Shown: piece after piece, positions 27,932 through 60,409 of the stretch
Position numbering within the stretch: the first letter of the stretch is position 1
How the letters are laid out: each line of letters begins with the position of its first letter
Virus record (IMG/VR): IMGVR_UViG_3300033074_002207
DNA length: 64,000 nt
Direction: 5' to 3' (one strand)
From: a virus
Lineage: Duplodnaviria > Heunggongvirae > Uroviricota > Caudoviricetes
Program-made: the position numbers and the translations under genes
The notes under the pieces: model-generated
What the model saw: only the letters and a program-made list of their open reading frames with translations
Database searches by the model: none
What the model was told of the DNA's origin: nothing

Positions 27932-28008
27932 CCGGACTTAGCTCACGGTGGTAGAGCGCCTCGCTGAAGACGAGGAGGTACTCGGTTCGACTCCGAGAGT
28001 CCGGGCCA
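27932..28008 (+). tRNA. tRNA-Phe(GAA), canonical
   Basis: acceptor ccggact/agtccgg, D stem gctc/gagc, anticodon stem cctcg/cgagg with loop ctGAAga, CCA encoded; overall very close to a bacterial tRNA-Phe design. Confidence 0.7.
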
Positions 28009-43537: not shown

Positions 43538-43586
43538 GATAGTGAAATATGGCTATTATTAAATCTGCTGTAGATAATGACACATA
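43510..43586 (+). repeat. direct repeat copy 2 (functional pncB promoter and start)
   Basis: gatttcctcaaaatgatttggggtaagatagtgaaatatggctattattaaatctgc. Confidence 0.65.
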
Positions 43587-44754
43587 TAAATTTTCTATGC
43601 AACAGGCTGTATTGCACAACTACCCCGATGTTCCCGTTCGATACAATTTTGCTTGCCGAAGCAAAGGGGTGGATTTACGACCTTTTCGACAAGAAATTCG
43701 GGATGAAATTGACGCTCTAGAGGGTGTAATTTTTACCGGGCAAGAACTGGATTATCTCTCTGCGTTGCCTTGGGCAAAGCCTAGCTACATTGAATCGCTT
43801 CGCTCTTTCAGGTTTCATCCAGAATATATCAAGCTTGGTGAAAAGAACAATCAACTTACACTCACGTTTTCTGGCAACTGGTATGAGACGATTTTATTCG
43901 AAGTTCCAGTTTTGGCGATTATTGAAGAAGTGTACACACGCAACATGTTTCCTTTTACAATGGAGCGTGAGGTTCAGGCAAACCAGTTGCTTATTGATAA
44001 AATCAACTGGCTTCTAGCTCAGTTGTCTTCAAACAGCTTCCCTAATGCTTGTTCGGACTTTTTGCTGACAGAAATGGGAACGCGCCGACGATATTCGCGG
44101 GTGTGGCAAGAAACTGTAGTGCGACGATTGGCAGAGAAAATGCCGAAGAATTTAGTCGGCACAAGCAATATCTATTTGGCTAAGGAATATGGGTTGAAGC
44201 CCGTTGGCACAATGGCTCACGAATGGCTACAAGCCCATCAAGCACTTGCACCACTGCGAAAGTTTCAGAAAACTGCACTTGAAGTCTGGATGCATGAATA
44301 TCGAGGCTGGCTTGGAATTGCCCTATCCGATGTTGTTGGATTTGCAGCTTTTCTTGTCGATTTCGACATGCTTCTGTCGAAGGCATATGACGGCGCTCGG
44401 CATGACAGTGGCGACCCTGTTGACTGGGGGCATCAGCTTGTCAAGCACTACGAGAAACACTGGATTGACTCGCGCACTAAAACCGCCGTTTTTAGCGATG
44501 GATTGGACTTTGAGAAGGCTTTCGAGCTTTACAAAGAATTCAATGAGTTGTTCAAGATTTTCTTCGGCATTGGAACCTATCTGACAAACGATATGGGCGA
44601 TGATGCGCCGCCGCTTTCTATCGTTATCAAAATGGTAGAATGTTGCGGTGAGCCTGTGGCTAAACTTTCAGACAGTCCCGGTAAAGAGATGTGCGACAAC
44701 AACGTGTATCTCGATTATTTGCGACAATCCACCAGTAGAATTATCAATTCATAA
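43549..44754 (+). CDS. pncB: nicotinate phosphoribosyltransferase
   Basis: N-terminus DNDTYKFSMQQAVLHNYPDVPV parallels the PncB consensus LDTDAYKLHMQQAVFHHY. Confidence 0.75.
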   Translation: MAIIKSAVDNDTYKFSMQQAVLHNYPDVPVRYNFACRSKGVDLRPFRQEIRDEIDALEGVIFTGQELDYLSALPWAKPSYIESLRSFRFHPEYIKLGEKNNQLTLTFSGNWYETILFEVPVLAIIEEVYTRNMFPFTMEREVQANQLLIDKINWLLAQLSSNSFPNACSDFLLTEMGTRRRYSRVWQETVVRRLAEKMPKNLVGTSNIYLAKEYGLKPVGTMAHEWLQAHQALAPLRKFQKTALEVWMHEYRGWLGIALSDVVGFAAFLVDFDMLLSKAYDGARHDSGDPVDWGHQLVKHYEKHWIDSRTKTAVFSDGLDFEKAFELYKEFNELFKIFFGIGTYLTNDMGDDAPPLSIVIKMVECCGEPVAKLSDSPGKEMCDNNVYLDYLRQSTSRIINS

Positions 44755-44932
44755 AAAAGTGTACGATAATATGGAATAGTTTCTGTATATCACAAGTAAC
44801 ATGTGGATTGAAGATTGGGTACCATATCTTTTTATTTGTAGCGTCTTGATAGCTGCAAGTTTTAGTTCTGTTCGTGAAGCGGTGTTATACGTGGTTGTCA
44901 AAATAAAAAGTAAGCGCGGCGGTTTGTTGTAA

Positions 44933-45976
44933 ATGGCACGGTGGTACGAAACCAGAGCTAAGCTATACGAGGAATTTTCAGCAAATTTAGCGTTCCACGA
45001 ACCGCATAATAAGGGGTTGTTTAAATGCCCAATATGTCTTGATTTATTTACACAAGACTATTTAGTGTCAAAGCCTAATCAAAATGCCGTGGTGGTGGCG
45101 CATATTATTCCTAAAAGCTTTCTAAACGCTGGATACACACTATGTTGCATCAAATGTGACAGCAAATTTGGTTCAACCCTGGCTGGCGCAGAGCGTGTTC
45201 TTCGACATAATCTGAGATTGGCAAAATGGCGAAACAAGCCATATATCACACGCACAACATTTGAAACAACGCATGGCTCCGTCACTTTGTTGGCTGAAAT
45301 TACATGGGGAGAAAACGGGGAGCCACTACCCACATTTCGTGTAGATGAAATACCAAAAGGTATTAATCACGAAATGCTACTTGAACAATGCAATGCGTTT
45401 GTAACTCGTTCCCATACTGGTGAGCCGAATGATTTTACGCTCTGGAAGTCATATCTATATAACAGAAAAATCCGTTATGCAAATCTAAATTGGTGGCACA
45501 GTCTTTATCTTTTTATGTTTCATCACTTTGGATACCAATGGGTGTTAAACGACCCACGCGGCGAGTTGATTCGCAATCAACTTAACAATTTGAATGAAAA
45601 TATCATTCCTGAAATTTTCTTAGAGCCCAAGGTTTATCCACTCGTGGCACCATATGAAGCGCCGCCGCACGACCATCTACCACAGCGTCCAAGTTTGCGA
45701 TTTGGCATAGATAAAGATGGAAATGTTATCAACAGCGGTTATTTTATGGTTTTCCCCAAGCTTAATGAGACGATGGATAACATTACGCTATTCCTGCCTT
45801 GGAATTTTGAGACGTGTGTGGAGCGCCCAGAGCCTGTTAGTTTTACAGCAAGGCTAAAATATGGACATTCTGTTATTAAACACCGGATTCCAGATTATAT
45901 ATCGCCTGATGATGTGGTAAAATATCACATTCCCAATCAGGAGCAATCAAATGAATCTGTTTTCATTAATAGCTGA
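44933..45976 (+). CDS. hypothetical protein with Cys/His cluster (CPICLD...AHIIPKS...CIKCD), possible HNH-like fold
   Basis: 347-aa ORF. Confidence 0.35.
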   Translation: MARWYETRAKLYEEFSANLAFHEPHNKGLFKCPICLDLFTQDYLVSKPNQNAVVVAHIIPKSFLNAGYTLCCIKCDSKFGSTLAGAERVLRHNLRLAKWRNKPYITRTTFETTHGSVTLLAEITWGENGEPLPTFRVDEIPKGINHEMLLEQCNAFVTRSHTGEPNDFTLWKSYLYNRKIRYANLNWWHSLYLFMFHHFGYQWVLNDPRGELIRNQLNNLNENIIPEIFLEPKVYPLVAPYEAPPHDHLPQRPSLRFGIDKDGNVINSGYFMVFPKLNETMDNITLFLPWNFETCVERPEPVSFTARLKYGHSVIKHRIPDYISPDDVVKYHIPNQEQSNESVFINS

Positions 45977-46048
45977 ATACCCAATGACCACATTTACCAT
46001 CATCTTGCTTGGAATGGTAATTTACAAACATTTTCGTGAGTCAAAATA

Positions 46049-46077
46049 ATCCTCATTTGCCTGGGTGTTGTGATATA
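46049..46077 (+). promoter_or_regulatory. promoter: ATCCTC-17-GATATA
   Basis: atcctc atttgcctgggtgttgt gatata. Confidence 0.45.
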
Positions 46078-46082
46078 TTACT

Positions 46083-47753
46083 ATGGTTGTTCAGGAACTA
46101 GAAACACTCATTGAAGCCACAATCTTGCAGATTTATGGCATTAATTGCACGACAAAACTTGTCGTGCCTAAAAATCTCTTTGGTGGACAGCGATTTTATG
46201 CATCAAATGTATCCTTTCGCCTATCAGAGCAACTGAAAAAGTCACCAGCAGATATTAGTTGTGAAATCGCATCTGCATTGCCTCAACACCGATATATTGA
46301 TGCTGTAGAGGCTGTTAACGGGTATATCAACATTCTGCTCAGCAAAGTAGCTATTGCTGACATCGTTTGCCGACTTCATGATACCGACAATTTAGCATCA
46401 TCTGATGTGAATGCCGGAAAAGCAATCGCCCTTGAATTTGTGAGCGCGAACCCCACTGGACCACTTAGTGTAGTCAACGGTCGTGCTGCCGCGATTGGAA
46501 GTAGCCTAGCTAATATTCTGGAAACCACTGGCGCGTCAGTAACAACGCGGTATTACATAAACGACAATCCCGAGTCTGGTCAGTTGGTAGCACTTAAAAA
46601 CACATTGGATTATTACGACAAGGTAAACCAAGGTGAGCAAGTTGAGTTTCCAGAGGATGGTTATAAGGGCGAGTTTATCAAGAGTGTGTGGAAAAAATAT
46701 CATGCATTTCACGCGGTTGGAGATATCGCTTTTGGTGCGGTTGCTGTTAATTACATCATTCAGTGCCAACAGGCTGACCTAGACGCATTAGGTGTTTATT
46801 TTGATTCATTTGACCGGGAATCTGTCTATATGAAGGGACGGACTTTAGACCGTTTGTTCAGCGGCTTCGGTGTGAATTTATCTGATTTCACCTATATCCA
46901 GGATGGTGCTACATGGTTGAAAACATCTGAATATGGAGATAGTAAAGACAGGGTTATAATTCGAGCAGATGGACGACCCACTTATTTCCATAATGACATC
47001 ATTTACCATGCCGTCAAATATTATCGCAGTCGAAACGCTGATTCGAATGTACAGCTAATTAATATTTTTGGAGCAGACCATCACGGTTATGTTGACCGAT
47101 TAAATGCTGTCATGCGAATGTGGGGATTGCCAGATATCACTGTGCTTTTAACTCAAATGGTGAGCCTGGAAACAACCGATGAGAACGGTGTCACCAGTGC
47201 ATATATTGGAAGCAAGCGAGAAGGGCAATATTTGCATCTTAAAGAGGATTTTATCGACCGTGTGGGTTGTGACGCAGCGCGATGGTATTTTCTGTCTGAG
47301 ACATTGACTGCACATTTGAAGATTAATGTCGATAAGGCGACAGAGCAGAATATGTCCAATCCGGTGTTTTATGTGCAATATGCACATGCGCGATTTGCTC
47401 AAATTCTTTCAAAGGCATCAACCTTGGGAATAACACTCGACGGTCATTTTGCGAATCTATATTTGTTAAATGAATCCGAGGCGGCTGTTCAGCTTATTCT
47501 CAAATTGAACGAATATGAGTCTGTAGTGGCTAGTGCCGCTGAGAAGTTGTCGCCACATGTCATCAAAACATACCTGTATGAGTTGGCACAACTGACGCAT
47601 AAATATTATGCCAGCGGACGACTTATCGAACAAGCATATGAAGAGTGCTTAGCGGGATTGTATTTGGTCACCACCACGAACAAAGTTTTAAAGCACGGAC
47701 TTGGCTTATTGGGAATCAGTGCGCCGTTGGCTATGGTGGCTTTAGACGAGTAA
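46083..47753 (+). CDS. arginyl-tRNA synthetase-like protein; HIGH-equivalent position appears degenerate (SVVNGRAA in place of HVGHLRS)
   Basis: SANPTGPLSVVNGRAAAIGSSLANIL and GADHHGYVDRL align by eye to ArgRS [22 protein letters not shown] / GADQHGY. Confidence 0.55.
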   Translation: MVVQELETLIEATILQIYGINCTTKLVVPKNLFGGQRFYASNVSFRLSEQLKKSPADISCEIASALPQHRYIDAVEAVNGYINILLSKVAIADIVCRLHDTDNLASSDVNAGKAIALEFVSANPTGPLSVVNGRAAAIGSSLANILETTGASVTTRYYINDNPESGQLVALKNTLDYYDKVNQGEQVEFPEDGYKGEFIKSVWKKYHAFHAVGDIAFGAVAVNYIIQCQQADLDALGVYFDSFDRESVYMKGRTLDRLFSGFGVNLSDFTYIQDGATWLKTSEYGDSKDRVIIRADGRPTYFHNDIIYHAVKYYRSRNADSNVQLINIFGADHHGYVDRLNAVMRMWGLPDITVLLTQMVSLETTDENGVTSAYIGSKREGQYLHLKEDFIDRVGCDAARWYFLSETLTAHLKINVDKATEQNMSNPVFYVQYAHARFAQILSKASTLGITLDGHFANLYLLNESEAAVQLILKLNEYESVVASAAEKLSPHVIKTYLYELAQLTHKYYASGRLIEQAYEECLAGLYLVTTTNKVLKHGLGLLGISAPLAMVALDE

Positions 47754-47755
47754 TT

Positions 47756-47784
47756 TTCCTCAAAACGAGTCTTATGGAGATATA
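47756..47784 (+). promoter_or_regulatory. promoter: TTCCTC-17-GATATA
   Basis: ttcctc aaaacgagtcttatgga gatata. Confidence 0.5.
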
Positions 47785-47789
47785 AAGTT

Positions 47790-48470
47790 ATGCCAGATTT
47801 ATCACCGCACACAAAAAGCTACGTCTTTGTATTTGACGACACGCCCATTACTATTGCAGTAACTAATCAAAGTCTTTTGGATATTGAGGGCGTAGAAGCA
47901 ATTGTCAATGCTGCTAACACAGGAATGCGTGGCGGTGGTGGCATTGATGGCGCGATTCATAAGGCGGCTGGAAGCGAACTTCTCGAAAGTCTTCAAAAAG
48001 AGGCTCCAAACGGATGCCCAACCGGAGAAGTTGTAGTTACCCCCGGTTTTAAAACTGGCTTCAAATACATTTTCCACACACCTGGTCCGCGATGGGAAGA
48101 TGGTAAAAGCGGAGAGAAAGAATATCTCATTTCATGCTATTGGAATTGCATGAATGAAGCCAATCTCCTCAAGGTTCCATCCATTGGTTTTTGCTCGATT
48201 TCTACAGGAATCTACCGATACCCGCTTGATGATGCTGCCTTCACCGCAGTAGAAACGGTGCTACGATATTTACGAAGCGCGATTGAAGATATCGGTGTAT
48301 CCCACACCACCAAGGTGGTATTTGCCATGTACACCAAGCCAGAGTATGACATGTATCTCGGTGTATTGGATGCATTATACGACCAGCATTTGGCAATGGA
48401 AAAGACAGCATCGCGTGGCGGTTTCTGGTATCGGCTTTCACAAAAGTTCTCAGGATGGTTGGTTAGATGA
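47790..48470 (+). CDS. macro domain protein (ADP-ribose / O-acetyl-ADP-ribose binding or hydrolysing)
   Basis: IVNAANTGMRGGGGIDGAIHKAAG. Confidence 0.85.
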   Translation: MPDLSPHTKSYVFVFDDTPITIAVTNQSLLDIEGVEAIVNAANTGMRGGGGIDGAIHKAAGSELLESLQKEAPNGCPTGEVVVTPGFKTGFKYIFHTPGPRWEDGKSGEKEYLISCYWNCMNEANLLKVPSIGFCSISTGIYRYPLDDAAFTAVETVLRYLRSAIEDIGVSHTTKVVFAMYTKPEYDMYLGVLDALYDQHLAMEKTASRGGFWYRLSQKFSGWLVR

Positions 48471-48775
48471 AGAAATATTGCAACACAACGTTTTACAATG
48501 TGATTTTACCAGTCACACTTATGGTGTTAATGGTAACTGCTGCGGTTCTGTGGATGATTACACGGGTGGATTTTTGGATTTGGCTCTGTCTTATTATCTG
48601 CGTTTCTTTTAAATTTATCCATCACAAACTGGAAAGGCTTTCAATTCAACAGCGAGAGGACTACGGTCTTGTGGATAGTGAGGGAAGGCTTTACCCCGGT
48701 AGCCTGTCTGATGCTGATGAGCGCGAAATCTTGCGCATCAAAGAGGGATGGGATGACAATAAGGGGGTAAAATAA
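48467..48775 (+). CDS. small membrane protein
   Basis: two TM helices. Confidence 0.4.
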   Translation: MKKYCNTTFYNVILPVTLMVLMVTAAVLWMITRVDFWIWLCLIICVSFKFIHHKLERLSIQQREDYGLVDSEGRLYPGSLSDADEREILRIKEGWDDNKGVK

Positions 48776-48924
48776 TGTCCATGTCTGAATCTATCTTTGA
48801 TACAATATTTGGAATTATCATTGGCTTGTTTTTTCTTGCCATGTTATGGAACTACGTAATTGGCGAAGAAATCAAAACTTTCTTCGCGGATGTGTTGTCG
48901 CTCTTTAAGAAAAAGGGAGAGTAA
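48775..48924 (+). CDS. small membrane protein (49 aa)
   Basis: TAATG overlap; single TM; not in the ORF track (below 60 aa). Confidence 0.3.
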   Translation: MSMSESIFDTIFGIIIGLFFLAMLWNYVIGEEIKTFFADVLSLFKKKGE

Positions 48925-48926
48925 AA

Positions 48927-49418
48927 ATGCATGAAGTTTTTATCTGGACAGCGTTCAGGCATGTTTCTGTAAAAGAACCCTTTCAACAGTTTTATGCTAA
49001 TTATATAACAGAAATTTGGGACAACTTATCACGAGGCACACAGCAATGTATTGTGCGCGATGTGGAAGACATGGTGAGAAACCCTCACTGGTATCAAGAT
49101 GGCGCGATTGACAATTGGGGATTCATTCTTAATCTGCCACTTAATGCAGACACTAGAGGCGAGGGGCAAGTCAAACCAAATGAAATGTTTATGCTTTTTG
49201 CAGTTAAGTATGCTGCTGGGCGCATGACCTATGTTGTCAGTTGGGTGGTTGATGAGCTTCGCAAAGTCTGGGATGGATTGCAGTATGAAACCAAATTTGA
49301 AATCCAAAGCTATCTATCTTTGCGAATGGACAGAGAGGGTGCGCTCGGGATGGATTGTGACAAGAAGCAATGGCTGGATGTAATTAGCTGGAAACTAGAA
49401 GAACCAGCAAATTCATAA
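48927..49418 (+). CDS. hypothetical protein (Trp-rich)
   Basis: 163-aa ORF. Confidence 0.45.
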   Translation: MHEVFIWTAFRHVSVKEPFQQFYANYITEIWDNLSRGTQQCIVRDVEDMVRNPHWYQDGAIDNWGFILNLPLNADTRGEGQVKPNEMFMLFAVKYAAGRMTYVVSWVVDELRKVWDGLQYETKFEIQSYLSLRMDREGALGMDCDKKQWLDVISWKLEEPANS

Positions 49419-49424
49419 TCAACT

Positions 49425-49453
49425 TTCCTCAAAACTGAAAATCGGGATATAAT
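49425..49453 (+). promoter_or_regulatory. promoter: TTCCTC-17-TATAAT
   Basis: ttcctc aaaactgaaaatcggga tataat. Confidence 0.6.
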
Positions 49454-49458
49454 AAACC

Positions 49459-50631
49459 ATGCAAAAGATTAATGGAATCCCGGTTTTCGGACATCCTGTC
49501 GATGAACAGGCTTTAGCGCAGATTCAGAACTGCATGCCAGAGGCATGCGGCGCGGCTCTTATGGGCGACCATCACCTTGGTTATTCTGTGCCCATTGGCG
49601 GCGTGGTCGTTTACGATGGAATGATTTCTCCAAGCGGCGTGGGATATGACATCGCATGTGGAAACAAGGCTGTCCGACTGGACATGGACGGAGACGAAGC
49701 TCGAAAGAACATCAAGACCATCATGGATGATGTTTGGAAGAGCATCGAATTTGGAATTGGACGCAAGAACCAAGAGGTAGTAGACCACGAGTTGTTCGAC
49801 AGTGACGCTTGGCGTTTCGGTGTGGCGTCAGATTTCAAGGACAAGGCGCGTGAACAGCTTGGAACTGTCGGAAGCGGAAACCACTATGTGGACATTTTCG
49901 TTGACGAAAAGAACCGGGTTTGGGTTGGCGTCCACTTTGGAAGCCGTGGACTTGGACATACTTTAGCAAGCCACTTCATTAAGTTGGGTGGTGGAAGCGA
50001 CGGTATGCATGTAAAGCCCGTGGTATTCGATGTCAATTCCAACCTTGGCGCAGATTATATCGAGTGCATGAATCTTGCTGGCGAATACGCTTATGCAGGA
50101 CGTGACTGGGTGTGTTCGCGTGTGGCGCAAATTCTTGGGGCACCGATTGTTGAAGAAATTCACAATCACCACAACTTTGCGTGGAAGGAAACTCACAACG
50201 GTCGAGACTATTGGGTTGTCCGCAAGGGCGCAACCCCGGCATTTCCTGGTCAAAAGGGATTTGTTGGCGGTTCAATGGGTGACCGTTCTGTGATTCTGGA
50301 AGGCTTGGAGTCAGATGCGTCTCGTGAAGCGTTTTATTCCACTGTGCATGGTGCTGGTCGTATTATGTCTCGTACAGAGGCGACTGGACTGAGCAAGTGG
50401 GGTAAGCGACGTGTGCGCGAACCTGGCGTTAAGCAAGAAGACATGGACGCTTGGGTGAAGAAGGTTGGTGTAGAACTTCGTGGCGCGGGTGTTGACGAAT
50501 CCCCGCAGGTGTACAAGCGCATCAATGATGTTCTTGAACATCACGAAGGAACCATCAAGATTCTACATACGCTTACGCCAATCGGCGTGGCTATGGCTGG
50601 AAGCGACACCTTCGACCCGTACAAGGATTAG
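49459..50631 (+). CDS. rtcB: RtcB-family RNA ligase (3'-phosphate/5'-OH)
   Basis: GVGYDIACGN, GSGNHYVD, HNHHNF, VHGAGR. Confidence 0.8.
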   Translation: MQKINGIPVFGHPVDEQALAQIQNCMPEACGAALMGDHHLGYSVPIGGVVVYDGMISPSGVGYDIACGNKAVRLDMDGDEARKNIKTIMDDVWKSIEFGIGRKNQEVVDHELFDSDAWRFGVASDFKDKAREQLGTVGSGNHYVDIFVDEKNRVWVGVHFGSRGLGHTLASHFIKLGGGSDGMHVKPVVFDVNSNLGADYIECMNLAGEYAYAGRDWVCSRVAQILGAPIVEEIHNHHNFAWKETHNGRDYWVVRKGATPAFPGQKGFVGGSMGDRSVILEGLESDASREAFYSTVHGAGRIMSRTEATGLSKWGKRRVREPGVKQEDMDAWVKKVGVELRGAGVDESPQVYKRINDVLEHHEGTIKILHTLTPIGVAMAGSDTFDPYKD

Positions 50632-50641
50632 TCCTTAAATT

Positions 50642-50671
50642 CGGAGTTGTTATATAGTGTAACAACTCCGA
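50642..50671 (+). other. perfect 12-bp hairpin (tcggagttgtta-tatagtg-taacaactccga) immediately after the rtcB stop; processing or termination signal without a T-run
   Basis: sequence. Confidence 0.4.
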
Positions 50672-50707
50672 ATCCTCAAAAGCGGATAAGCTCGGGTATA
50701 ATAAGAC

Positions 50708-51685
50708 ATGACTAAACAGACTCCAAACGGCGACATTAAGATTTTCAGCGGCAACGCTCATCGTGACTTGGCATTACGGGTTTGTAACTACTTAAATGTA
50801 GAACTTGGGCACATGACTTGTACAAGGTTCGCAGACGGTGAAGTTCGTGTAAAAGTCGATGAATCTGCGCGTGGAAACAATGTTTACATCATTCAGCCCA
50901 CATGTGCCCCAACAAATGACAACTTGATGGAGTTGCTTATTATGTTAGACGCCTTCCGACGAGCATCTGTCAAGGAAATCAATGTCATTATCCCATATTT
51001 TGGTTATGCGCGTCAGGACAAAAAGGTAAAGCCAAGGGAGCCTATTTCATCTGCTCTTGTTGCCAAGTTGATTGAAACTGCTGGCGCTGCTCATGTAACA
51101 GTTTGTGATATTCACGCTGAGCAAATTCAAGGATTTTTTGATATTCCAGTAGACCATCTTTATGCTGGACCGATTATCACCAGATTTTATGAAGAGCAAG
51201 GATATGCTAATCAAGACGATGTTTGTGTGGTTAGCCCAGACGTTTCTGGTGTTGCCCGAGCGCGAAATTTAGCTGAGTCTCTCAAGGCACCTATTGCTAT
51301 CGTTGCAAAGCGACGACCAGATGCTAATGTGGTAGACATTTTAGAAGTTATTGGTGATGTTGCTGGAAAACGTTGCATCATGATTGATGACATGCTCGAC
51401 ACAGGTGGTACCATTATTGCTGGCGCAGAAGCATTAGTTCGACGCGGTGCTGTTAGTGTTGAAGCGGCGACAACGCATTTGGTGTTAAGCGCCAATGCAT
51501 CCCAACGGCTTCAAGATTCAGATTCTATTACAAGAGTGGTGGGGCTGGATACAGTTCCTATTGCCAGTGAAAAGTTATTCCCCAAGCTAAGCGTCTTGCC
51601 CGTTGCACCGCTCATTGGTGAAGCTATTAAGCGATTCCACGCAAATCAATCAGTGAGCGAACTGTTTGAAAAATGGAGACATTAG
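50708..51685 (+). CDS. prs: ribose-phosphate pyrophosphokinase (PRPP synthetase)
   Basis: near full-length collinearity with bacterial Prs (FSGNAH..., DGEVRVKV, IIQPTCAPTNDNLMELLIM..., IPYFGYARQDKK, HAEQIQGFFDIPVD, DDMLDTGGT). Confidence 0.9.
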   Translation: MTKQTPNGDIKIFSGNAHRDLALRVCNYLNVELGHMTCTRFADGEVRVKVDESARGNNVYIIQPTCAPTNDNLMELLIMLDAFRRASVKEINVIIPYFGYARQDKKVKPREPISSALVAKLIETAGAAHVTVCDIHAEQIQGFFDIPVDHLYAGPIITRFYEEQGYANQDDVCVVSPDVSGVARARNLAESLKAPIAIVAKRRPDANVVDILEVIGDVAGKRCIMIDDMLDTGGTIIAGAEALVRRGAVSVEAATTHLVLSANASQRLQDSDSITRVVGLDTVPIASEKLFPKLSVLPVAPLIGEAIKRFHANQSVSELFEKWRH

Positions 51686-51686
51686 T

Positions 51687-51715
51687 TTCCTCATAGTTGA
51701 AAGTTTGACTATAAT
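51687..51715 (+). promoter_or_regulatory. promoter: TTCCTC-17-TATAAT
   Basis: ttcctc atagttgaaagtttgac tataat. Confidence 0.6.
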
Positions 51716-51721
51716 AAACAC

Positions 51722-52783
51722 ATGGGACGGCTTTTAACTAGAACAGAATTTAGGGAAGGAGTGCTGGAGCGCGACGGACATCGTTGTGTGATTTGTGGTA
51801 TCTCTGGTGTCAAGTTAGACGCCCATCATATTGTTGAACGAAGACTTTGGACAGCCGAACACGAGTTTGGCGGATATTTTCTCGACAATGGAGCATCCGT
51901 TTGCGAAACCCATCATATCATGGCTGAACAGACTGTTTTGTCATGTGATGATGTGCGTCGTGCTGCTGGAATCACCAAGGTGATTCTTCCAGAGCAATAT
52001 TACGATGACGTTGTGATTGACAAGTGGGGTAACTACATTCAATCAAACGGCACCAGGCTTCGCGGGGAGTTGTTTTATGATGAATCTGTTCAAAAAATTC
52101 TAAAAGAAGGTGGTGTTTTATCCGATTTTGTGGATTATGTTAAATATCCACGGACTTATCATTTAGATTTTAGCAATCCACCTAAAGATGATAAGGTTCT
52201 CAAAAATTACGACTTTATTCGTGACAAAGAAGTTGTAGTCACCGAAAAAATGGACGGCGAAAACACAACGATGTATCGTGATTATATCCATGCGCGGTCG
52301 CTTGAATATCTAACAGGAGAAGACCGTGGCTGGGTAAAAGCGTTGCATGCTAGAATTTGCTACGATATACCAGAAGGATGGCGTATTTGCGGTGAAAATC
52401 TGTATGCTAAGCACTCTATCACATATGTTGATTTAGAATCTTATTTCAACGTGTTTTCCATTTGGAATGAAAAGAATGAATGTTTGTCGTGGGATGACAC
52501 CGTTGAATGGTGCAACTTGCTGGGATTAAATCATGTTCCAGTCTTGGCTCGCGGACTTTTTGATAGAGAAGAGCTTCTTAGAATTACGCAAATGTTAGAT
52601 TTAACAGTTCAAGAGGGCTTTGTTGTGCGCCCAACTCAACAGTTTTCTTATTCAGATTTCAAATATGCAGTTATGAAATTTGTTAGACCCAACCATGTCA
52701 CCACCAGTAATCACTGGCGACATCAGCGTATCGTGCCAAATGGTTTGAAGAGAACAGACGCCTTGGAAAACATTGTGGTATAA
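51722..52783 (+). CDS. fusion protein: N-terminal HNH-like zinc/His domain + Rnl-type RNA ligase
   Basis: DGHRCVICG...DAHHIVER (HNH-like), then KYPRTYHLD and motif I EKMDGEN. Confidence 0.6.
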   Translation: MGRLLTRTEFREGVLERDGHRCVICGISGVKLDAHHIVERRLWTAEHEFGGYFLDNGASVCETHHIMAEQTVLSCDDVRRAAGITKVILPEQYYDDVVIDKWGNYIQSNGTRLRGELFYDESVQKILKEGGVLSDFVDYVKYPRTYHLDFSNPPKDDKVLKNYDFIRDKEVVVTEKMDGENTTMYRDYIHARSLEYLTGEDRGWVKALHARICYDIPEGWRICGENLYAKHSITYVDLESYFNVFSIWNEKNECLSWDDTVEWCNLLGLNHVPVLARGLFDREELLRITQMLDLTVQEGFVVRPTQQFSYSDFKYAVMKFVRPNHVTTSNHWRHQRIVPNGLKRTDALENIVV

Positions 52784-52804
52784 TCACTGGGCAAGCTAAT
52801 CATT

Positions 52805-52835
52805 TTCCTCAAAACTTAACACGCCACGGTATATA
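52805..52835 (+). promoter_or_regulatory. promoter: TTCCTC-17/19-TATATA
   Basis: sequence. Confidence 0.45.
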
Positions 52836-52838
52836 AAC

Positions 52839-53747
52839 ATGAGCATTCGAACCGATTTACACACTCAAGAGGGCATCCAGACATATGCGGCTGGTATGAA
52901 TGCCTCGGTTTCTGACAAAGCAAAGATTTTGCCCTATATTAAGCCAGGAAACATTTTGGAAATCGGGTGCGGAAACGGCACTGTTCTTGAGTTGATTTCG
53001 GAAGCTTTCCCCACTAGCAATGTATATGGCGTGGACATGTCTGCGCAGTTGCTTGGTCTTGCTGCGCAAAGAAAGTATGATGGACCGGTGCAGTTATACT
53101 GCTGTGATGCTAAAAAGCTGCACACCATTGACGGGGCACCGCGAAAATTCTCTACCATCATCTTTTGCTCAGTTCTGCACGAGATTTTCTCTGGATATCT
53201 TGCGCGTTCCGTAGAAGACAACCCTATTGAAGACGCTTTTAGGGACACAATGGATTTTGTCGCCCACTTCTGCGAAGAATATCTAGAAGAGGGTGGACGG
53301 CTTATCATCCGCGACGGTGTGCGCCCCAAGCCCGAAATGATTTATGTGGAAATTGACACCCCGGAACAGCGTGATACATTCTTCCGATTTGTGGATGATT
53401 TTACGCCGTTTAAGATTGAATTTAGCTACTCGTCGGTAACTAATAAAATCAAGATGCCATCTACGCATTTGTTTGAATTTCTTACCAAATATTTCTACGA
53501 GAAGAACTGGAACATTGAAGTAACAGAACAGTTCGGATGGGCTGACCCTGACTCGATTGCTGAGTATCTTCAAGACTACTTCGAAGGTGATGCAGAAATG
53601 ACGATGCAAACAGTAGAAGGGTGGTCTTATACGCTCGAATTCTTGCGAAACAAGTGGACTGGTGACTTTACTCTCACCGATATGGATGGTCAAGAGTATA
53701 CTCCAAAGTCTACAATGATGTACATTGCGGAAAAGGTGAGTTTATGA
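52839..53747 (+). CDS. class I SAM-dependent methyltransferase (possible Hen1-like RNA 3'-end 2'-O-methyltransferase given neighbourhood)
   Basis: motif I ILEIGCGNGTVLE, motif II VYGVDMS; adjacent to the RNA ligase. Confidence 0.6.
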   Translation: MSIRTDLHTQEGIQTYAAGMNASVSDKAKILPYIKPGNILEIGCGNGTVLELISEAFPTSNVYGVDMSAQLLGLAAQRKYDGPVQLYCCDAKKLHTIDGAPRKFSTIIFCSVLHEIFSGYLARSVEDNPIEDAFRDTMDFVAHFCEEYLEEGGRLIIRDGVRPKPEMIYVEIDTPEQRDTFFRFVDDFTPFKIEFSYSSVTNKIKMPSTHLFEFLTKYFYEKNWNIEVTEQFGWADPDSIAEYLQDYFEGDAEMTMQTVEGWSYTLEFLRNKWTGDFTLTDMDGQEYTPKSTMMYIAEKVSL

Positions 53748-54202
53748 GCCGAAAATCCCCCTGGTCTGACAAGGAGTTTTTAAGTGCGGTGATTCGTCAA
53801 CTGGCTGTTGATAATGGTACGCCCAATATCATGCCCACCTATGATGATATGTCGGCATACCCCGGCTTGTCTTCTTGGGTTAAGACCAAAGAGGGCGGTA
53901 CAAAGCGACTTTCTGACAAACTCAAAATGGTGATGAAGCCCAATATTATGCCAAATTCTAACAACAATCCGTTTTATCAACACAGTGTCATGAAGGGAGC
54001 AACTGTGTTGGTTCACAATCTCAACAACATTACACCAGCAATCGTCATTGATAAGAATGGCAAGCCTGGTGGTTTAAAAGTTATGGTGTTGAACACAAAA
54101 ATGGCTATCAAAAATGTCCAATATGGGAAAACTCCATCCAGACATTTTCAATGGTGCTATGTATCCGATTTGCCCAAGGGCGCTGTAACGATTGAAGTCT
54201 AG
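53744..54202 (+). CDS. hypothetical protein
   Basis: 152-aa ORF. Confidence 0.4.
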   Translation: MSRKSPWSDKEFLSAVIRQLAVDNGTPNIMPTYDDMSAYPGLSSWVKTKEGGTKRLSDKLKMVMKPNIMPNSNNNPFYQHSVMKGATVLVHNLNNITPAIVIDKNGKPGGLKVMVLNTKMAIKNVQYGKTPSRHFQWCYVSDLPKGAVTIEV

Positions 54203-54209
54203 AGCAATT

Positions 54210-54238
54210 TTCCTCATACACCGGGCGGACTCCATATA
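54210..54238 (+). promoter_or_regulatory. promoter: TTCCTC-17-CATATA
   Basis: sequence. Confidence 0.4.
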
Positions 54239-54243
54239 GAAGT

Positions 54244-55275
54244 ATGGTAACACAGAATCTATATCGTCCTAAGTCGCTCAATGAGATTGTTGGACAAGAT
54301 GAAGTTCGAGAATATTTGCGCATCAAGGTAAGTGCAGCAAAAAATTCTGGCGCTCCTATTGGTCACACTCTTTTTCTGGGTTCTTCGGGTGCTGGTAAGA
54401 CCACCTTTGCACATGCAGTGGCTCTCGAAATGGGCGTTGATTGTGTAGAGTTGTTTGCACCAACGATTCCAAGCAAGGATGTTCTGATTCAGACACTCGC
54501 AAAACTGAAGCCAAATAGCATTGTGTTTGTGGACGAAATTCATGCGCTTTCTCCCAAGGTGCAGGAAGTTTTATACACTGCCCTTGAAGACGGTGAAATT
54601 CACGGAATCAACAAGTTCACTAAGGCTCAATACATTATCAAGGTTCCGCCCTTTACGATGATTGGTGCAACGACTCACGAGGGACGTTTGAACGAACCGT
54701 TGCGAAAGCGATTTCCAAACGCTGTTCGTCTGCGCCCTTACAATCTTGCAGAAATGACCAGAATCATTGTTTCGGCTGCTAAGAATCAGTTCCAGATTTT
54801 GCTGGACGAGAATACAGCAAAGCGCATCGCCTGTGTGTCTCAGGGCACTCCGCGTGTTGCACGGAACTTGCTAAAAGCCGCATATGAAGTGGCTCAGGCA
54901 TACAACTCGGATGTGTCAGTTGCGGTGGTAAACAAGACGTTGTTGTTCGAAGAGTTAGACCCGATTATTGGTCTGAATCGCGCTCAACGGCGCTACTTGA
55001 TGGCTCTCGCTACTGAGGGACAAATGGGTGCCAAGGGACTTGCGGTGCTTTTGGATGAACAGATTGAAACTATTGAGTTTGCAATCGAACCATTCTTGAT
55101 GCAAGAAGTGGAGCTTCCGCATCCAGACAACAACACACAATACGAATCTGGTATAATGGTAAAGCGAACAACCAAGGGTCGTCAAATCACCCCGTTTGGA
55201 TTGCGATACCTTCAGGTGTGCGCCAAGCTACAACAGCATGGTTGGTTGCAGGGCGAAAGTGTAAAGGTGGGTTAA
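54244..55275 (+). CDS. ruvB: RuvB-like AAA+ Holliday-junction branch-migration ATPase
   Basis: LYRPKSLNEIVGQDEVREYL...LGSSGAGKTTFAHAVALEMG...VFVDEIHALSP...PPFTMIGATT collinear with RuvB. Confidence 0.8.
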   Translation: MVTQNLYRPKSLNEIVGQDEVREYLRIKVSAAKNSGAPIGHTLFLGSSGAGKTTFAHAVALEMGVDCVELFAPTIPSKDVLIQTLAKLKPNSIVFVDEIHALSPKVQEVLYTALEDGEIHGINKFTKAQYIIKVPPFTMIGATTHEGRLNEPLRKRFPNAVRLRPYNLAEMTRIIVSAAKNQFQILLDENTAKRIACVSQGTPRVARNLLKAAYEVAQAYNSDVSVAVVNKTLLFEELDPIIGLNRAQRRYLMALATEGQMGAKGLAVLLDEQIETIEFAIEPFLMQEVELPHPDNNTQYESGIMVKRTTKGRQITPFGLRYLQVCAKLQQHGWLQGESVKVG

Positions 55276-55988
55276 TGAGACAATACTCTTCTTCTGAAAA
55301 AGAACTTAGACAGTCATGGGCGAAAGACATCTTTCACCCTGACTGTGAAGAGTATCGCGTACATTATGCGCTCACAGATTATCATGCCAATCAAAGCTTT
55401 GATTGGTTAATGTCTCAATATCAGGAAACTCACAGGTATTACCACAACCTTAACCACCTGTTTCACCTGTTTAACACTCCTTTTGAAAGAACCGACTATG
55501 GCTCTTCGCTGGTGAGAACACTATTCTTCTTCTTTCACGATTGTATTTACAACATCCCATCCTCTACCAACGAAGAGGATAGCGCAACTGAGTGTGAGGC
55601 TCGGTTGAGTTCTATGGGGTTTGTTAAATCCGAATCTGTGTTTAACAGACATAAAGGTGGGGAAACCAGAGATTTTGTATGTGAGACGATTCTGTTAAGC
55701 AAACACACACAACCCACAAACAACACCTTTCAACAAGAACTCTTAGATGCAGACCTTTGTATTCTGGGCGGAAATCCTCAAGAATACAAAGAGTATGTTA
55801 CTAATATAAGAACCGAATACGGAGTCGTCCCACAAAACGTATGGAATGAAAAGCGCGGCGAATTTTTAGAGTTTATGCTGACAAAGCCACGAATATTTCA
55901 ATCACCGCTTTTTTACGGACTCTACGAAGAACAAGCAAGACAAAACATGTCTGAAGAATTAAGCAAATACACACGAGAACAAATATGA
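55275..55988 (+). CDS. hypothetical protein, possible HD-type phosphohydrolase (H...HD)
   Basis: YHNLNHLFHLF...FFFFHDCIYN; start at the Met overlapping the ruvB stop. Confidence 0.3.
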   Translation: MRQYSSSEKELRQSWAKDIFHPDCEEYRVHYALTDYHANQSFDWLMSQYQETHRYYHNLNHLFHLFNTPFERTDYGSSLVRTLFFFFHDCIYNIPSSTNEEDSATECEARLSSMGFVKSESVFNRHKGGETRDFVCETILLSKHTQPTNNTFQQELLDADLCILGGNPQEYKEYVTNIRTEYGVVPQNVWNEKRGEFLEFMLTKPRIFQSPLFYGLYEEQARQNMSEELSKYTREQI

Positions 55989-57199
55989 AACAACTGACAC
56001 TCAGCACTCTTTTAGGCGATGCCTCTCCAACGAAGCGAGGCGAAATGTCCATCGTCTTTTCCACAGAAGTTTTTTGGGCACCCAAGAACGAAAATGTGAG
56101 CGCCGCAAAGGGCAACAAGAAGTTTTGGCAAGGTCACGTAGCCACTGATGGTATTGATTGGTACACCCTCACCACTTTCTGGCAAGAAACCTCTGATGGC
56201 TCAGAATCTAAGCGACAAACCAGCGCACCGACCAAAATGACGCAGAAGAATGTCGGAAAGGCTAATGAAACGAGCTTGGAACAACAGGCATATTCTGAGC
56301 TAAACTCAATGATTAACAAACAGCGAGACAAAAAGTATCGTCTAGAAGGCGAAACTGTCGCCGCTGATTCCGCTCTTAGCTTGCCACTTCCAATGTTGGC
56401 TCACAAGTGGAAGGAAAAGAAGCACAAGATTCAGTTCCCGGTTTGGGCTCAACCCAAGTTTGATGGCGTCAGGATGCTCCAAGACGGCGAAAGAATGTGG
56501 TCACGAAAGGGTAAGCTGATGATTCCTGAGTGTATTGAGCACCTGCTTATTGATACACAAGGCTATAACATGGATGGAGAGCTTATTCTTCCGCCGCCCT
56601 ACGCCTTTCAAGACACAATGCAAGCAGTGAAGAAATACTATCCGCATCTGTCACCGAATTTGTTGCATCGTGTGTATGACATTATGATTCCTGATATCAA
56701 GTTTTCTGAAAGGTTGGCTTTTCTCAAGGATGTCGTGCAAAAATCAGGCGCGTCGAATATCGTTTTATCTGAAACCGTTCAACTTCACAGTGAACAAGAA
56801 CTAGAACAATATCATGAAGCCAAGGTCGCTGAGGGTTGGGAAGGCGTTATCGTTCGTGCAGATATCGGCGGATATGAAATCAATAAAAGAGCCAACCAGT
56901 TGCTCAAATATAAGTCTTTTGACGACGATGAGTTTGAAGTTGTCGGTGTCGTCACCGGAGAGGGTAAGTTTGAAGGCTTGGGAATTTTGGAGTGTATTAC
57001 CAAGCATGGTGTGACATTCCGCGCCACACCAAAGGGCACGGTGGAGTATCGAAGACGACTATACGAACACCCAGAGGAAGTTATTGGACAAATGTGGAAA
57101 ATCCAATACTTCGGGTGGACTACAAACCCAGACCCGACACAGGTCAAGCCAAGGCATGCTATTGCCGTTGGTGAGCGGGACTCTGATATCGAGGGATAA
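55985..57199 (+). CDS. ATP-dependent DNA ligase (phage/T7-like)
   Basis: motif I AQPKFDGVR, central adenylation region, C-terminal OB-like region. Confidence 0.7.
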   Translation: MKQLTLSTLLGDASPTKRGEMSIVFSTEVFWAPKNENVSAAKGNKKFWQGHVATDGIDWYTLTTFWQETSDGSESKRQTSAPTKMTQKNVGKANETSLEQQAYSELNSMINKQRDKKYRLEGETVAADSALSLPLPMLAHKWKEKKHKIQFPVWAQPKFDGVRMLQDGERMWSRKGKLMIPECIEHLLIDTQGYNMDGELILPPPYAFQDTMQAVKKYYPHLSPNLLHRVYDIMIPDIKFSERLAFLKDVVQKSGASNIVLSETVQLHSEQELEQYHEAKVAEGWEGVIVRADIGGYEINKRANQLLKYKSFDDDEFEVVGVVTGEGKFEGLGILECITKHGVTFRATPKGTVEYRRRLYEHPEEVIGQMWKIQYFGWTTNPDPTQVKPRHAIAVGERDSDIEG

Positions 57200-57394
57200 A
57201 TGGAATTTTTCGTTGGAGCTACAGTTGTTGATTCTGCCTATTTCGGAAAAATAGGCAGAATCACACACATTGATGATTACGATTCATGTCACGTAATTCA
57301 TGTATTATGGCATGACGGGACGCAATCTGACTTTATGCCGGATGAAGGCACAAAGATTGTTGACGATGAAATACCGATTTTAGTAAAAAAATAG
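57200..57394 (+). CDS. hypothetical protein
   Basis: 64-aa ORF. Confidence 0.3.
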   Translation: MEFFVGATVVDSAYFGKIGRITHIDDYDSCHVIHVLWHDGTQSDFMPDEGTKIVDDEIPILVKK

Positions 57395-57431
57395 CCCTAC
57401 GGGTGAAAAACCTTGGTATAATAACGTTGAT

Positions 57432-57731
57432 ATGTCGAACGTTATTCAACCACTAAGTGATAAAATTGCTATTTTGGCAGATGTCGAAAATAGAACATTG
57501 GCATCTGGTATTCAACTACCCTCCGAAGCTCGCAAAACGTCCACACAAACTGGAATTGTGCAAGCTGTCGGACCAGGCTTTCTCCTCGAAAGCGGCAACC
57601 GAGTTCCGCCAAGCGTAGCTGTTGGTGACCGTGTTGCTTTCAGTATTCATGCAGGTGCCGACGTAGAAGTTGACGGCAAGACGTATATATTGATTAACGA
57701 AGAGCAAATCTTGGCGATTTTGAAGAAGTAA
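57432..57731 (+). CDS. groES: co-chaperonin GroES
   Basis: classic 99-aa Cpn10 (PL.D.I...GI..P......TGIV.AVGPG...V.VGD.V.F......V..DG..Y.I). Confidence 0.85.
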   Translation: MSNVIQPLSDKIAILADVENRTLASGIQLPSEARKTSTQTGIVQAVGPGFLLESGNRVPPSVAVGDRVAFSIHAGADVEVDGKTYILINEEQILAILKK

Positions 57732-59390
<1,659 letters not shown>

Positions 59391-59412
59391 TGTCTTGTTG
59401 ATGGAGAGTAGG

Positions 59413-59443
59413 CAAGCCCCCAAAATTGGGGGCTTGTTTTTTT
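59413..59443 (+). terminator. intrinsic terminator (caagccccc-aaaatt-gggggcttg + T7) overlapping the next promoter
   Basis: sequence. Confidence 0.75.
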
Positions 59444-59470
59444 CCTCAATACCACAATGCGCTGTATAAT
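59442..59470 (+). promoter_or_regulatory. promoter: TTCCTC-17-TATAAT
   Basis: ttcctc aataccacaatgcgctg tataat. Confidence 0.6.
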
Positions 59471-59476
59471 AAAGAC

Positions 59477-60409
59477 ATGCAGAAAACCTATGTGGTGGTG
59501 TTGGCTTATTTTCAGAACATCAATTTAACCCAAAAAGACAAAGATTATCTATATTCTCTGAAGCCTGAAAACGGAGACATGATTGCAATTTTAGACGTGA
59601 AGCGTGGTGCATGCACCGCCGAGCAACCTTTGCGTCCAAATCAGCGGCAGGACATTTTACGTGGACACAAGAAGCTTTTCAACGCTGGTGTCGCAGAACA
59701 CGTTCATATCAAGGATAATGAACGATGGTCGCTCATTCTCGATGAAACAATCGACCGTAATATGACTACTGGCACGACACATATTGTGTTTTATGCCGCG
59801 AAATCACTTGCTGATAAATATTGCGGTAAATATCAAGTTGAGGTCATGGAAGATATTCCTGGTCTAACAGATGTTTCAGCCGCTGTAGGCGTTAAGCCAC
59901 ACACCAGTAATGATTTTCGTCAAGGCATTATGTATGCCGAACAACGACGTTTCCCGATGGTGTATTCAACAGTGGATATTGCTATTGTTGACCCAACGGC
60001 TCAATATGTACTGCTTGGACGCAAGAAGGATGAAAAGCTGTGGCGCTTCCCCGGTGGCTTTGTTGACCCTACCGATGTTAGCAAAGAAGCCGCTTGGTGC
60101 CGAGAACTTAGCGAAGAAGTTCCCTTTGGAGTGGAAAGGTATCTCTCTGATATCGAGTATATCTGTTCAAATATCGTCCCAGATTGTCGATATACCGGAC
60201 GCGATAAGATTATGACCACGATGTTTGGTGCAGTGGTGGAATTTAAGATAGATGAACTCGAAGCTGGAGATGACTTGGCAGAAGTTCAACTGTTTAAAAT
60301 TGATGAAAGTCTGTTCGATAAGATGACAGACGACCATCACCCGGCGCTAAAGTCATTCTTGGCTTGGGCAACAAAAACCCGCAAAAATCTAAGTGGCATT
60401 ACATACTAG
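59477..60409 (+). CDS. Nudix hydrolase domain protein (C-terminal Nudix box; N-terminal domain unassigned)
   Basis: GGFVDPTDVSKEAAWCRELSEEVPFG fits GX5EX7REUXEEXGU; start set at MQKTY after the promoter. Confidence 0.65.
   Translation: MQKTYVVVLAYFQNINLTQKDKDYLYSLKPENGDMIAILDVKRGACTAEQPLRPNQRQDILRGHKKLFNAGVAEHVHIKDNERWSLILDETIDRNMTTGTTHIVFYAAKSLADKYCGKYQVEVMEDIPGLTDVSAAVGVKPHTSNDFRQGIMYAEQRRFPMVYSTVDIAIVDPTAQYVLLGRKKDEKLWRFPGGFVDPTDVSKEAAWCRELSEEVPFGVERYLSDIEYICSNIVPDCRYTGRDKIMTTMFGAVVEFKIDELEAGDDLAEVQLFKIDESLFDKMTDDHHPALKSFLAWATKTRKNLSGITY

Follow-up and report, generated by a model that had tools for sequence, protein, structure and literature searches.

We analyzed a 64,000-nucleotide stretch of the caudoviricete virus record IMGVR_UViG_3300033074_002207 (the whole 64 kb is hereafter called the window), and we lean toward the view that it belongs to a large phage lineage in which three enzymes, the nicotinate phosphoribosyltransferase PncB, the phosphoribosyl pyrophosphate (PRPP) synthetase Prs and a NadM-derived Nudix protein, push the Preiss-Handler salvage of nicotinamide adenine dinucleotide (NAD+) by the host without completing it. 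The original prediction, made from the DNA alone, had proposed a dispersed NAD+ and ADP-ribose module composed of these three genes and a macro-domain gene, together with a distant deacetylase gene. What carries our reading is the family identity of the enzymes, the loss of catalytic motifs from one of their domains and the conservation of the genes within the lineage, as read from sequence comparison.

Phage NAD+ reconstitution is known to counter NAD+-depleting defense, as established experimentally for the systems NARP1-3 (10.1101/2024.02.11.579819; PMC13464706). In the route that we propose, the Nudix protein would split free ADP-ribose, generated by NADases or released by the macro protein, into AMP and ribose-5-phosphate; the phage Prs, of canonical type, would convert ribose-5-phosphate into PRPP; and the phage PncB, also canonical, would combine PRPP with nicotinate into nicotinic acid mononucleotide (NaMN). 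The MacroD-type macro protein may feed the same pool by freeing ADP-ribose from O-acetyl-ADP-ribose or from ADP-ribosylated targets. Upstream, nicotinamide would be converted to nicotinate by the host PncA, and downstream, NaMN would pass through nicotinic acid adenine dinucleotide (NaAD) to NAD+ by the action of the host NadD and NadE, unless the phage carries copies of its own outside the window. From these assignments we infer the substrates, the flux through the route and any role against NAD+-depleting defenses.

PncB (43549..44754, + strand; 401 amino acids [aa]) starts exactly where the original prediction had placed it. The protein matches PF04095 (NAPRTase, 2.4e-73) and PF17767 (NAPRTase_N, 3e-33) and passes the cut-offs of the equivalog TIGR01514 (455 bits versus 269.55) and of NF003704 (502.5 bits versus 379). 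Its PDB matches are all nicotinate phosphoribosyltransferases (1YIR, 355 bits; 3OS4; 4HL7), NAMPT and Namat structures being absent at E<1e-3, and the conserved motif GT(M/Q)AHEW is kept as GTMAHEW at aa 220-226, where it lines up with that of 1YIR and 3OS4. Within this motif, His224 occupies what we take to be the position of the phosphohistidine that couples the enteric enzyme to ATP. By these matches, PncB is a canonical ATP-coupled nicotinate phosphoribosyltransferase and not the Namat of NARP1, and family membership suggests that it makes NaMN from nicotinate and PRPP, with a preference for nicotinate over nicotinamide. Among 50,697 phage records, 13 have a homologue, the majority being megaphages and Atu_ph07-like phages, and the score against phrog_448 is 36 bits only. 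The phage clade comprises 20 clusters that are 68-100% identical, the next matches being bacterial at 54%, and because of this step in identity the PncB lineage is indicated to stem from a single old acquisition. Downstream of PncB, orf347 (44933-45976), whose N terminus is Cys/His-rich by eye, was considered as a hidden adenylyltransferase and discarded: it has no Pfam, NCBIfam or PHROG match and is dissimilar to the NMN adenylyltransferase (NMNAT)-like protein of another jumbo-phage contig, L095, described below.

Prs (50708..51685, + strand; 325 aa), a class I ribose-phosphate diphosphokinase, likewise begins at the predicted position. It matches Pribosyltran_N (6e-51), NF002320 (421.9 bits, cut-off 297) and TIGR01251 (372 bits), aligns end to end with the Bacillus subtilis enzyme 1DKR (327 bits, aa 3-320 on residues 3-316) and with Escherichia coli 7XMU, and contains the motifs FADGE, ARQDKK and DDMLDTGGT. 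Adps, the synthetase of NARP1, is a PRPS-like protein of ~282 aa in which the C-terminal alpha11-alpha12 module and the allosteric sites are missing (PMC13586617). Among the 596 phage records that match the window Prs, about 560 are Adps-like; such Adps-type phage "Prs" proteins are 22-31% identical to it, the match stopping near aa 261-299, and phrog_619 (282 positions) scores 157 bits only. A full-length canonical Prs was found in about ten bona fide phage records and occurs together with PncB in the megaphages LR756501/LR756503 and LR756511. In LR756501, a 735-kb phage, PncB and Prs lie 19 kb apart, and ten of the larger open reading frames (ORFs) around and between them, when scanned, gave no NAD-related Pfam match, just PPK2 and one weak peptidase match. 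On this evidence, the window Prs is a canonical full-length PRPP synthetase and not the Adps of NARP1; family membership points to ribose-5-phosphate and ATP as its substrates for making PRPP.

The Nudix protein (59477-60409, + strand) consists of two domains. Because homologues begin at MQKT, its start is best placed at the ATG at 59477 and not at the TTG at 59426, in line with the original prediction, and a Nudix domain is indeed present (PF00293, 6e-10, covering aa 182-309 when the ORF is read from the TTG). When 5.8 billion proteins were searched with this sequence, 113 relatives were returned: sixteen at 64-99% identity, one at 41% and the rest at 27-43%, the aligned part exceeding 85% of the length in most of the last group. 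Several of these distant relatives carry both PF01467 (cytidylyltransferase-like) and Nudix domains and bear the JGI name bifunctional NMN adenylyltransferase/Nudix hydrolase. The motifs GRFQxxxLHxGH and SGTxxR are kept by distant relatives, most of which show HxGH or a close variant. In a set of 30 sequences with intact motifs, R17, F18, Q19, H24, H27, S134, T136 and R139 are invariant; this set matches the Francisella NadM-Nudix protein 2QJT at 7e-30 through both domains, as well as archaeal NMNATs, the mutant structures 1M8F, 1M8G, 1M8J and 1M8K being among its PDB matches. In the archaeal enzyme, the Arg, His, His and Arg at the corresponding positions presumably bind ATP, and their mutation cripples it.

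These are the residues that the N-terminal domain of the window protein (aa 1-158; 59477..59950) no longer has. There and in the 16 other clade members, AYFQNINLTxxD and GLTDVS replace GRFQ..HxGH and SxTxxR; the motif site in the window reads AYFQNINLTQKD plus GLTDVS and is alike in 17/17 clade members. Arginine has given way to tyrosine (Y11) and the two histidines to threonine (T18) and aspartate (D21), and SxTxxR is gone. HxGH is indeed absent from this N terminus, as originally noted. Adenylyltransferase activity has very probably been lost, making the domain a pseudo-NMNAT, and the Nudix protein would therefore be unable to supply the adenylyltransferase step.

Evidence that the domain retains the fold of a NadM-type NMN adenylyltransferase comes from profile and structure comparison. 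A profile built from the clade only, compared with PDB sequences, detected just the Nudix half, and establishing the homology of the N-terminal domain required the intermediate intact-motif family and a fold comparison. Aligned by hhalign against the intact-motif relatives, the clade gave a probability of 100% (E 1e-65, 294 columns). In the AlphaFold model of the protein (pLDDT 84.6, pTM 0.50; linker at aa 135-157 poorly predicted), the N-terminal domain shows an alternating beta-alpha Rossmann-like pattern, and the six best Foldseek matches of the model are the NadM-Nudix proteins 2QJT, 2R5W and 2QJO, covering both domains over 349-367 columns. By these comparisons, the domain is a derivative of NMNAT and not an unrelated domain.

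The N-terminal domain does not look like a decaying remnant. Within the clade, it is 61-90% identical to that of the window protein, a level equal to or above that of the Nudix half in most members, and the segment LDVKRGACTAEQPLRPNQR and the motif DNERWS are nearly invariant; compared with intact relatives, the N-terminal domain is 20-29% identical and the Nudix half 39-46%. On these figures, the domain is still under strong purifying constraint. Since it is conserved inside the clade yet diverged from the intact relatives, the pattern agrees with an episode of rapid change after which constraint set in, as for a domain with a new role other than catalysis. The conserved domain probably serves as a pyridine-nucleotide-binding or regulatory domain and may sense a ligand. 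The clade is rare, with two strong N-terminal-domain matches among 1.84 billion cluster representatives; the weaker matches retrieved have a GRFQ core with HxGH or a close variant. The pseudo-NMNAT domain is the most original feature of the gene set.

The Nudix hydrolase domain (aa 159-310; 59951..60409) looks active: the Nudix box REx2EE is kept, with R209, E210, E213 and E214 invariant, and this half is closest to the ADP-ribose-binding NadM/NrtR Nudix clade. We predict that it is an ADP-ribose pyrophosphatase, yielding AMP and ribose-5-phosphate.

The fourth gene encodes a macrodomain protein of 226 aa (47790..48470, + strand). As originally proposed, it belongs to the macro family (PF01661, 5.9e-37), and it is most similar to the MacroD type, its best PDB match being Oceanobacillus MacroD 5L9K (1.7e-33), followed by YmdB and MacroD1/2. 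Neither this protein nor the N-terminal domain of the Nudix protein thus turned out to match an unrelated function, an outcome that the original prediction had named, together with the absence of any NAD synthase or adenylyltransferase from the genome, as damaging to it. The first MacroD loop, of the pattern Nx6GG[VLI]D, is intact (NAAN at aa 40, GGGGIDGAIH at aa 48). The second loop (aa 138-145), for which the pattern is G[VIA][YF]G, reads GIYRYP in the window phage and in the near-identical contigs L001/L166, and it has the canonical form GIYGYP in two more distant relatives, L246 and L248; this Gly-to-Arg change may alter activity or substrate. The protein falls below every NCBIfam equivalog cut-off, and we regard it as a predicted ADP-ribose or O-acetyl-ADP-ribose hydrolase. 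Another relative, L002 (JGI Ga0499996_0000026), has an ADP-ribosylglycohydrolase gene (PF03747; 18648-19427) 8.6 kb downstream of its Nudix gene; the matching site in the window phage falls past the window end.

Gene order in this region is DHH, ThyX, ..., PncB, x, ArgRS, Macro, x, RtcB, Prs, x, Rnl, methyltransferase, x, RuvB, x, DNA ligase, GroES, GroEL, Nudix (x, a gene not named here). It is kept in relatives represented by contigs that are 144, 161 and 24 kb long, each seen in part: from upstream of PncB through Nudix in ENA k141_1887087 (144 kb; Nudix 41% identical), from PncB through Rnl in a Logan SRR23617308 contig and from RtcB through Nudix in JGI Ga0499996_0000026 (161 kb). When the block is compared with that of the most distant relative, conservation is highest for PncB (68%) and Prs (69%); for comparison, RuvB is at 43%, the methyltransferase at 48% and Nudix at 40%. 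Additional relatives were sought through two of the interspersed genes. The RtcB search in IMG/VR gave 80 loci, none with the neighboring genes, and RtcB is too widely shared to find relatives of the lineage. The RNA ligase search in IMG/VR and metagenomes gave 160 loci, of which only L166, near-identical to the window, is in the lineage; two contigs from that search, L086 and L095, served as outgroups.

At least Prs and the Nudix gene have promoter-like boxes of their own. A TATAATA box resembling a -10 element lies at 50697..50703 (+ strand), starting 11 nucleotides (nt) before the Prs ATG, and another at 59465..59471 (+ strand), starting 12 nt before the Nudix ATG; the same geometry is found at RtcB (49448), Rnl (51710) and GroES (57417), with further boxes at 18453, 31809 and 63755. 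The window contains 16 copies of TATAATA on the + strand against 2 on the - strand. A TG or GG often comes before the box, as in an extended -10 element, and many boxes start 11-15 nt before a gene's ATG with no Shine-Dalgarno sequence, which suggests a promoter class giving leaderless or near-leaderless mRNAs.

Support for a link between Prs and NAD+ that is independent of the window lineage comes from the two outgroups. L095 (166 kb) and L086 (405 kb), both jumbo-phage contigs, hold a tight NAD cluster (L095 2115-13815, L086 1883-13907) consisting of a degenerate NadM-like Nudix protein, an HxGH nucleotidyltransferase-like protein of ~400 aa, Nampt, canonical Prs, an Rnl-type RNA ligase and an NAD kinase. 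The nucleotidyltransferase-like protein has a Pfam CTP_transf_like match in L086 only, the L095 motif GSFNPAHAGH having been read by eye. The Prs-Rnl adjacency thus recurs in lineages unrelated to the window phage.

Several observations weigh against a concerted route, and most of them equally favor the alternative of unconnected auxiliary genes forming no concerted NAD/ADP-ribose module, which we consider unlikely but a serious contender. In that version, Prs would serve nucleotide synthesis, PncB would be a general NAD+ booster, the Nudix protein would be a housekeeping hydrolase and the macro protein would reverse ADP-ribosylation of phage or host targets or work with the neighboring RNA-repair genes. 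The four genes are not adjacent; they are spread over 17 kb and interspersed with genes for ArgRS, RtcB, an RNA ligase, a methyltransferase, RuvB, DNA ligase and GroES/EL. The identities of the four enzymes and their dispersal were correctly foreseen, and an operon or compact module is contradicted by these unrelated genes and by the separate promoter-like boxes of at least Prs and the Nudix gene. Because the intervening genes are equally syntenic, conservation covers the whole block and speaks for the importance of the genes to the phage but not for a single unit. Prs need not be dedicated to NAD+, since nucleotide synthesis in general draws on PRPP and the window further encodes a PurN-like protein, ThyX, a nucleoside 2-deoxyribosyltransferase-like (NDT-like) protein and a DHH phosphoesterase. 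The distance between PncB and Prs in LR756501, and the larger ORFs there without NAD-related matches, fit the same alternative. The macro protein is weak evidence for a route, because macrodomains occur in 56% of jumbo phages (PMC9503650). What unconnected genes leave to coincidence is that the Nudix protein descends specifically from the NAD-salvage enzyme NadM, that canonical Prs sits inside a tight NAD cluster in two other jumbo-phage lineages and that the reactions mesh, PRPP being the PncB co-substrate and ribose-5-phosphate from ADP-ribose hydrolysis the Prs substrate.

The missing steps of the pathway also count against the proposed route, which would rely on putative host or off-window genes. 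Pfam scans of the window ORFs of at least 50 aa (40 analyzed individually and all 63 remaining ones as concatenated queries) found no NadD/CTP_transf_like, NAD_synthase (NadE) or isochorismatase/PncA, and no NadR, PnuC, Nampt (NAMPT_N) or NAD kinase. The 7.7 kb upstream of the window contain no NAD genes, precomputed Pfam matches revealed no missing-step genes in 39 kb of the 144-kb relative or 21 kb of the 161-kb relative, and the corresponding L095/L086 proteins (NMNAT-like protein, Nampt and NAD kinase) gave no match by tblastn. An Rfam scan of the window for NAD+ riboswitches returned tRNAs only. The NaMN-to-NaAD step, noted from the outset as unaccounted for, thus remains so across the window, the upstream flank and ~60 kb of relatives. 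The search for nadD and nadE reached the 64-kb window and the accessible flanks, with ~85-90 kb of the genome lying beyond.

That remaining DNA leaves some room for a complete autonomous Preiss-Handler or NARP2-like pathway, with NadD or an NMNAT-like protein and NadE encoded outside the window, which strikes us as improbable. The source contig is ~157 kb, over half of it beyond the window, and jumbo phages with pncB-nadD-nadE have been described, for example Kuafu_71 (PMC11662467). Moreover, a distinct HxGH nucleotidyltransferase-like protein neighbors the degenerate NadM-like Nudix protein in both L095 and L086, and the lost NMNAT activity could therefore come from another gene. The negative Pfam and tblastn searches of the window, the 7.7 kb upstream and ~60 kb of relatives stand against this idea, as does the clustering of such genes in the other known phage examples.

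Very unlikely, in our view, is a role of the phage Prs as a toxin-insensitive substitute for a host Prs hit by ParT-like ADP-ribosyltransferase toxins, with the macro protein removing the modifications. ParT does ADP-ribosylate Prs (reviewed in PMC7758455), the macrodomain gene lies 2.2 kb upstream of Prs and one relative has an ADP-ribosylglycohydrolase gene nearby; however, PncB and the NadM-derived Nudix protein would be left unexplained, and the phage Prs has ordinary Prs motifs. Hardly credible is the NARP1 reading, in which "Prs" is really the ADP-ribose-pyrophosphate synthetase Adps and "PncB" really Namat: these two are routinely annotated as Prs and as nicotinamide/nicotinate phosphoribosyltransferase (10.1101/2024.02.11.579819), and the window Prs does score against phrog_619, but it keeps the C-terminal segment that Adps lacks (PMC13586617), passes its NCBIfam cut-off and shares low identity with Adps-type phage proteins, PncB has NAPRTase_N instead of NAMPT_N, passes its equivalog and matches no NAMPT or Namat structure, and ~6 kb with several genes separate the PncB end (44754) from the Prs start (50708), leaving no operon, so that we reject this reading on sequence, both proteins being of the canonical cellular type.

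Compared with characterized systems, the proposed Preiss-Handler route most resembles NARP2, in which the Vibrio phage KVP40 uses the Nampt NadV and the bifunctional NMNAT/Nudix protein NatV. Both involve a PRPP-consuming phosphoribosyltransferase and a two-domain protein of NadM/NatV architecture with an ADP-ribose-type Nudix domain, and both follow the logic of rebuilding pyridine nucleotides from salvage precursors. However, the phosphoribosyltransferase is here a PncB, of the deamidated branch and predicted to use nicotinate, rather than Nampt; the NMNAT motifs are lost, so that the second NARP2 reaction would be impossible for the Nudix protein; and a canonical Prs is added, NadD and NadE being needed from elsewhere. 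The proposed route thus transfers the NARP2 logic to the Preiss-Handler branch but stops short of completing it. In NARP1, the components are likewise a PRPS-fold and a type II phosphoribosyltransferase-fold protein with a similar aim, the recycling of ADP-ribose and a pyridine base, but they are repurposed enzymes, whereas the window encodes canonical cellular ones outside any operon. NARP1 pyrophosphorylates ADP-ribose directly, and here recycling would occur only after hydrolysis to ribose-5-phosphate; Namat is of the NAMPT family (PF18127, NAMPT_N, plus PF04095), and the window PncB has PF17767 instead. The PnuC transporter and NadR-like bifunctional enzyme of NARP3 have no such Pfam match among the window ORFs of at least 50 aa.

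The jumbo phages with pncB-nadD-nadE (PMC11662467) share with the window phage a PncB of the same branch in a large genome. Their genes are clustered, whereas here they are dispersed, only the first enzyme is seen, with nadD and nadE not found in the window, and Prs and a pseudo-NMNAT-Nudix protein accompany PncB. The bacterial NadM-Nudix proteins (Francisella 2QJT/2R5W, Synechocystis 2QJO) have the same two-domain fold, but the phage protein has very probably lost the activity of its adenylyltransferase half while keeping the catalytic core of the Nudix half; its Nudix domain is closest to the ADP-ribose-binding clade formed by NadM and the Nudix-type NrtR regulators. The L095/L086 cluster resembles the window in that a canonical Prs adjoins an Rnl-type RNA ligase and in that the first motif of its NadM-like Nudix protein is degenerate (YAPFQ..LEVH, YFPFQ..LACH). 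It differs in being compact and in having Nampt, a separate nucleotidyltransferase-like protein and an NAD kinase, where the window has PncB and tblastn found none of the extra genes.

The last member of the original proposal was an HDAC-family gene (10298-11251). The family holds, with a match to PF00850 (1e-68) and the class I histone deacetylases Clr6, RPD3 and HDAC2 as best PDB matches, but its place in an NAD+ module does not: the product is a Zn-dependent class-I-like deacetylase encoded 33 kb away, and such an enzyme neither uses NAD+ nor makes O-acetyl-ADP-ribose. No SIR2 domain or sirtuin was found in the window. The gene closes a packed trio (8338-11251) with those of an NADP-isocitrate dehydrogenase (8338-9750) and the NDT-like protein (9750-10277), base 9750 being common to these two; the trio also occurs in the near-identical contigs L249 and L250.

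The source of the window is a large phage. Several ORFs match phage-only PHROG families (e.g., phrog_33734 at 313 bits), one has an Ig-like virion-protein domain, and the exact PncB protein (P0114) is on record from a JGI contig 156,614 bp long. Among the 50,697 phage records, the window has no near-identical match, megablast of the 17-kb region finding none. The window further encodes IF-1 (5494-5793), an RF-1-domain protein (23795-24409), ArgRS (46083-47753), GroES/EL and an NADP-isocitrate dehydrogenase; the PurN-like gene, of PurN/Fmt formyltransferase type, lies at 24396-24977. Endonuclease and mobile genes include T4-type endonuclease VII, an HNH endonuclease (12288-13124, + strand) amid tRNA-Glu genes, a TnpB/Cas12f-like gene (41022-42140, - strand) directly upstream of the PncB-to-Nudix block and a GIY-YIG homing-endonuclease-like gene (42845-43537, + strand) ending 11 nt ahead of PncB. 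Two Rnl-type RNA ligases are encoded, and an RNA-repair-like set (49459-53747, 4586-5299), made up of RtcB, an Rnl-type ligase (353 aa), an S-adenosylmethionine methyltransferase (302 aa) and the second ligase (237 aa), is interleaved with the NAD genes and syntenic in relatives.

The window also contains 23 tRNA genes arranged in arrays (11413-12317, 17475-19795, 23621-23705 and 27683-28008), with marked redundancy: 13 are for Leu, 5 for Phe-GAA (four in tandem at 27683-28008 and one at 935-1008) and 4 for Glu. Three genes called tRNA-Leu at 17942-18177 (anticodons CAG, CAA and GAG) are just 77 nt long and thus without the long variable arm that a normal tRNA-Leu has; the Rfam tRNA model still gives them 47-62 bits, and they are embedded in an array of ordinary tRNA-Leu genes of 84-89 nt. 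Nearby, a gene at 21793-23157 encodes a 454-aa fragment of a class I (I/L/M/V-type) aminoacyl-tRNA synthetase.

The gene set is a variant of known phage NAD+ salvage, Preiss-Handler phage genes having already been reported computationally (PMC11662467). A bolder version of our reading, which we put forward as a doubtful speculation, would make it a fourth kind of phage NAD+ reconstitution, in which both products of defense NADases are recycled through the deamidated branch and the former NMNAT domain acts as a pyridine-nucleotide sensor gating ADP-ribose hydrolysis; if true, it would count among the rare examples of a phage enzyme domain that became a regulatory pseudo-enzyme. Annotation of phage "Prs" and "NAPRTase" genes mixes canonical enzymes with Adps or Namat, and the two kinds can be separated by length, N-terminal domain and curated hidden Markov model cut-offs. 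The three characterized routes, NARP1-3, use the amidated branch or recycle ADP-ribose directly, and a conserved set of PncB, Prs and an ADP-ribose hydrolase would extend phage NAD+ reconstitution to the nicotinate branch. A route leaning on the host NadD and NadE would predict limits on host range as well as a host counter-move, the loss or regulation of PncA. Finally, an NMNAT domain that is probably dead but constrained offers a clean and testable instance of pseudo-enzyme evolution in a virus.

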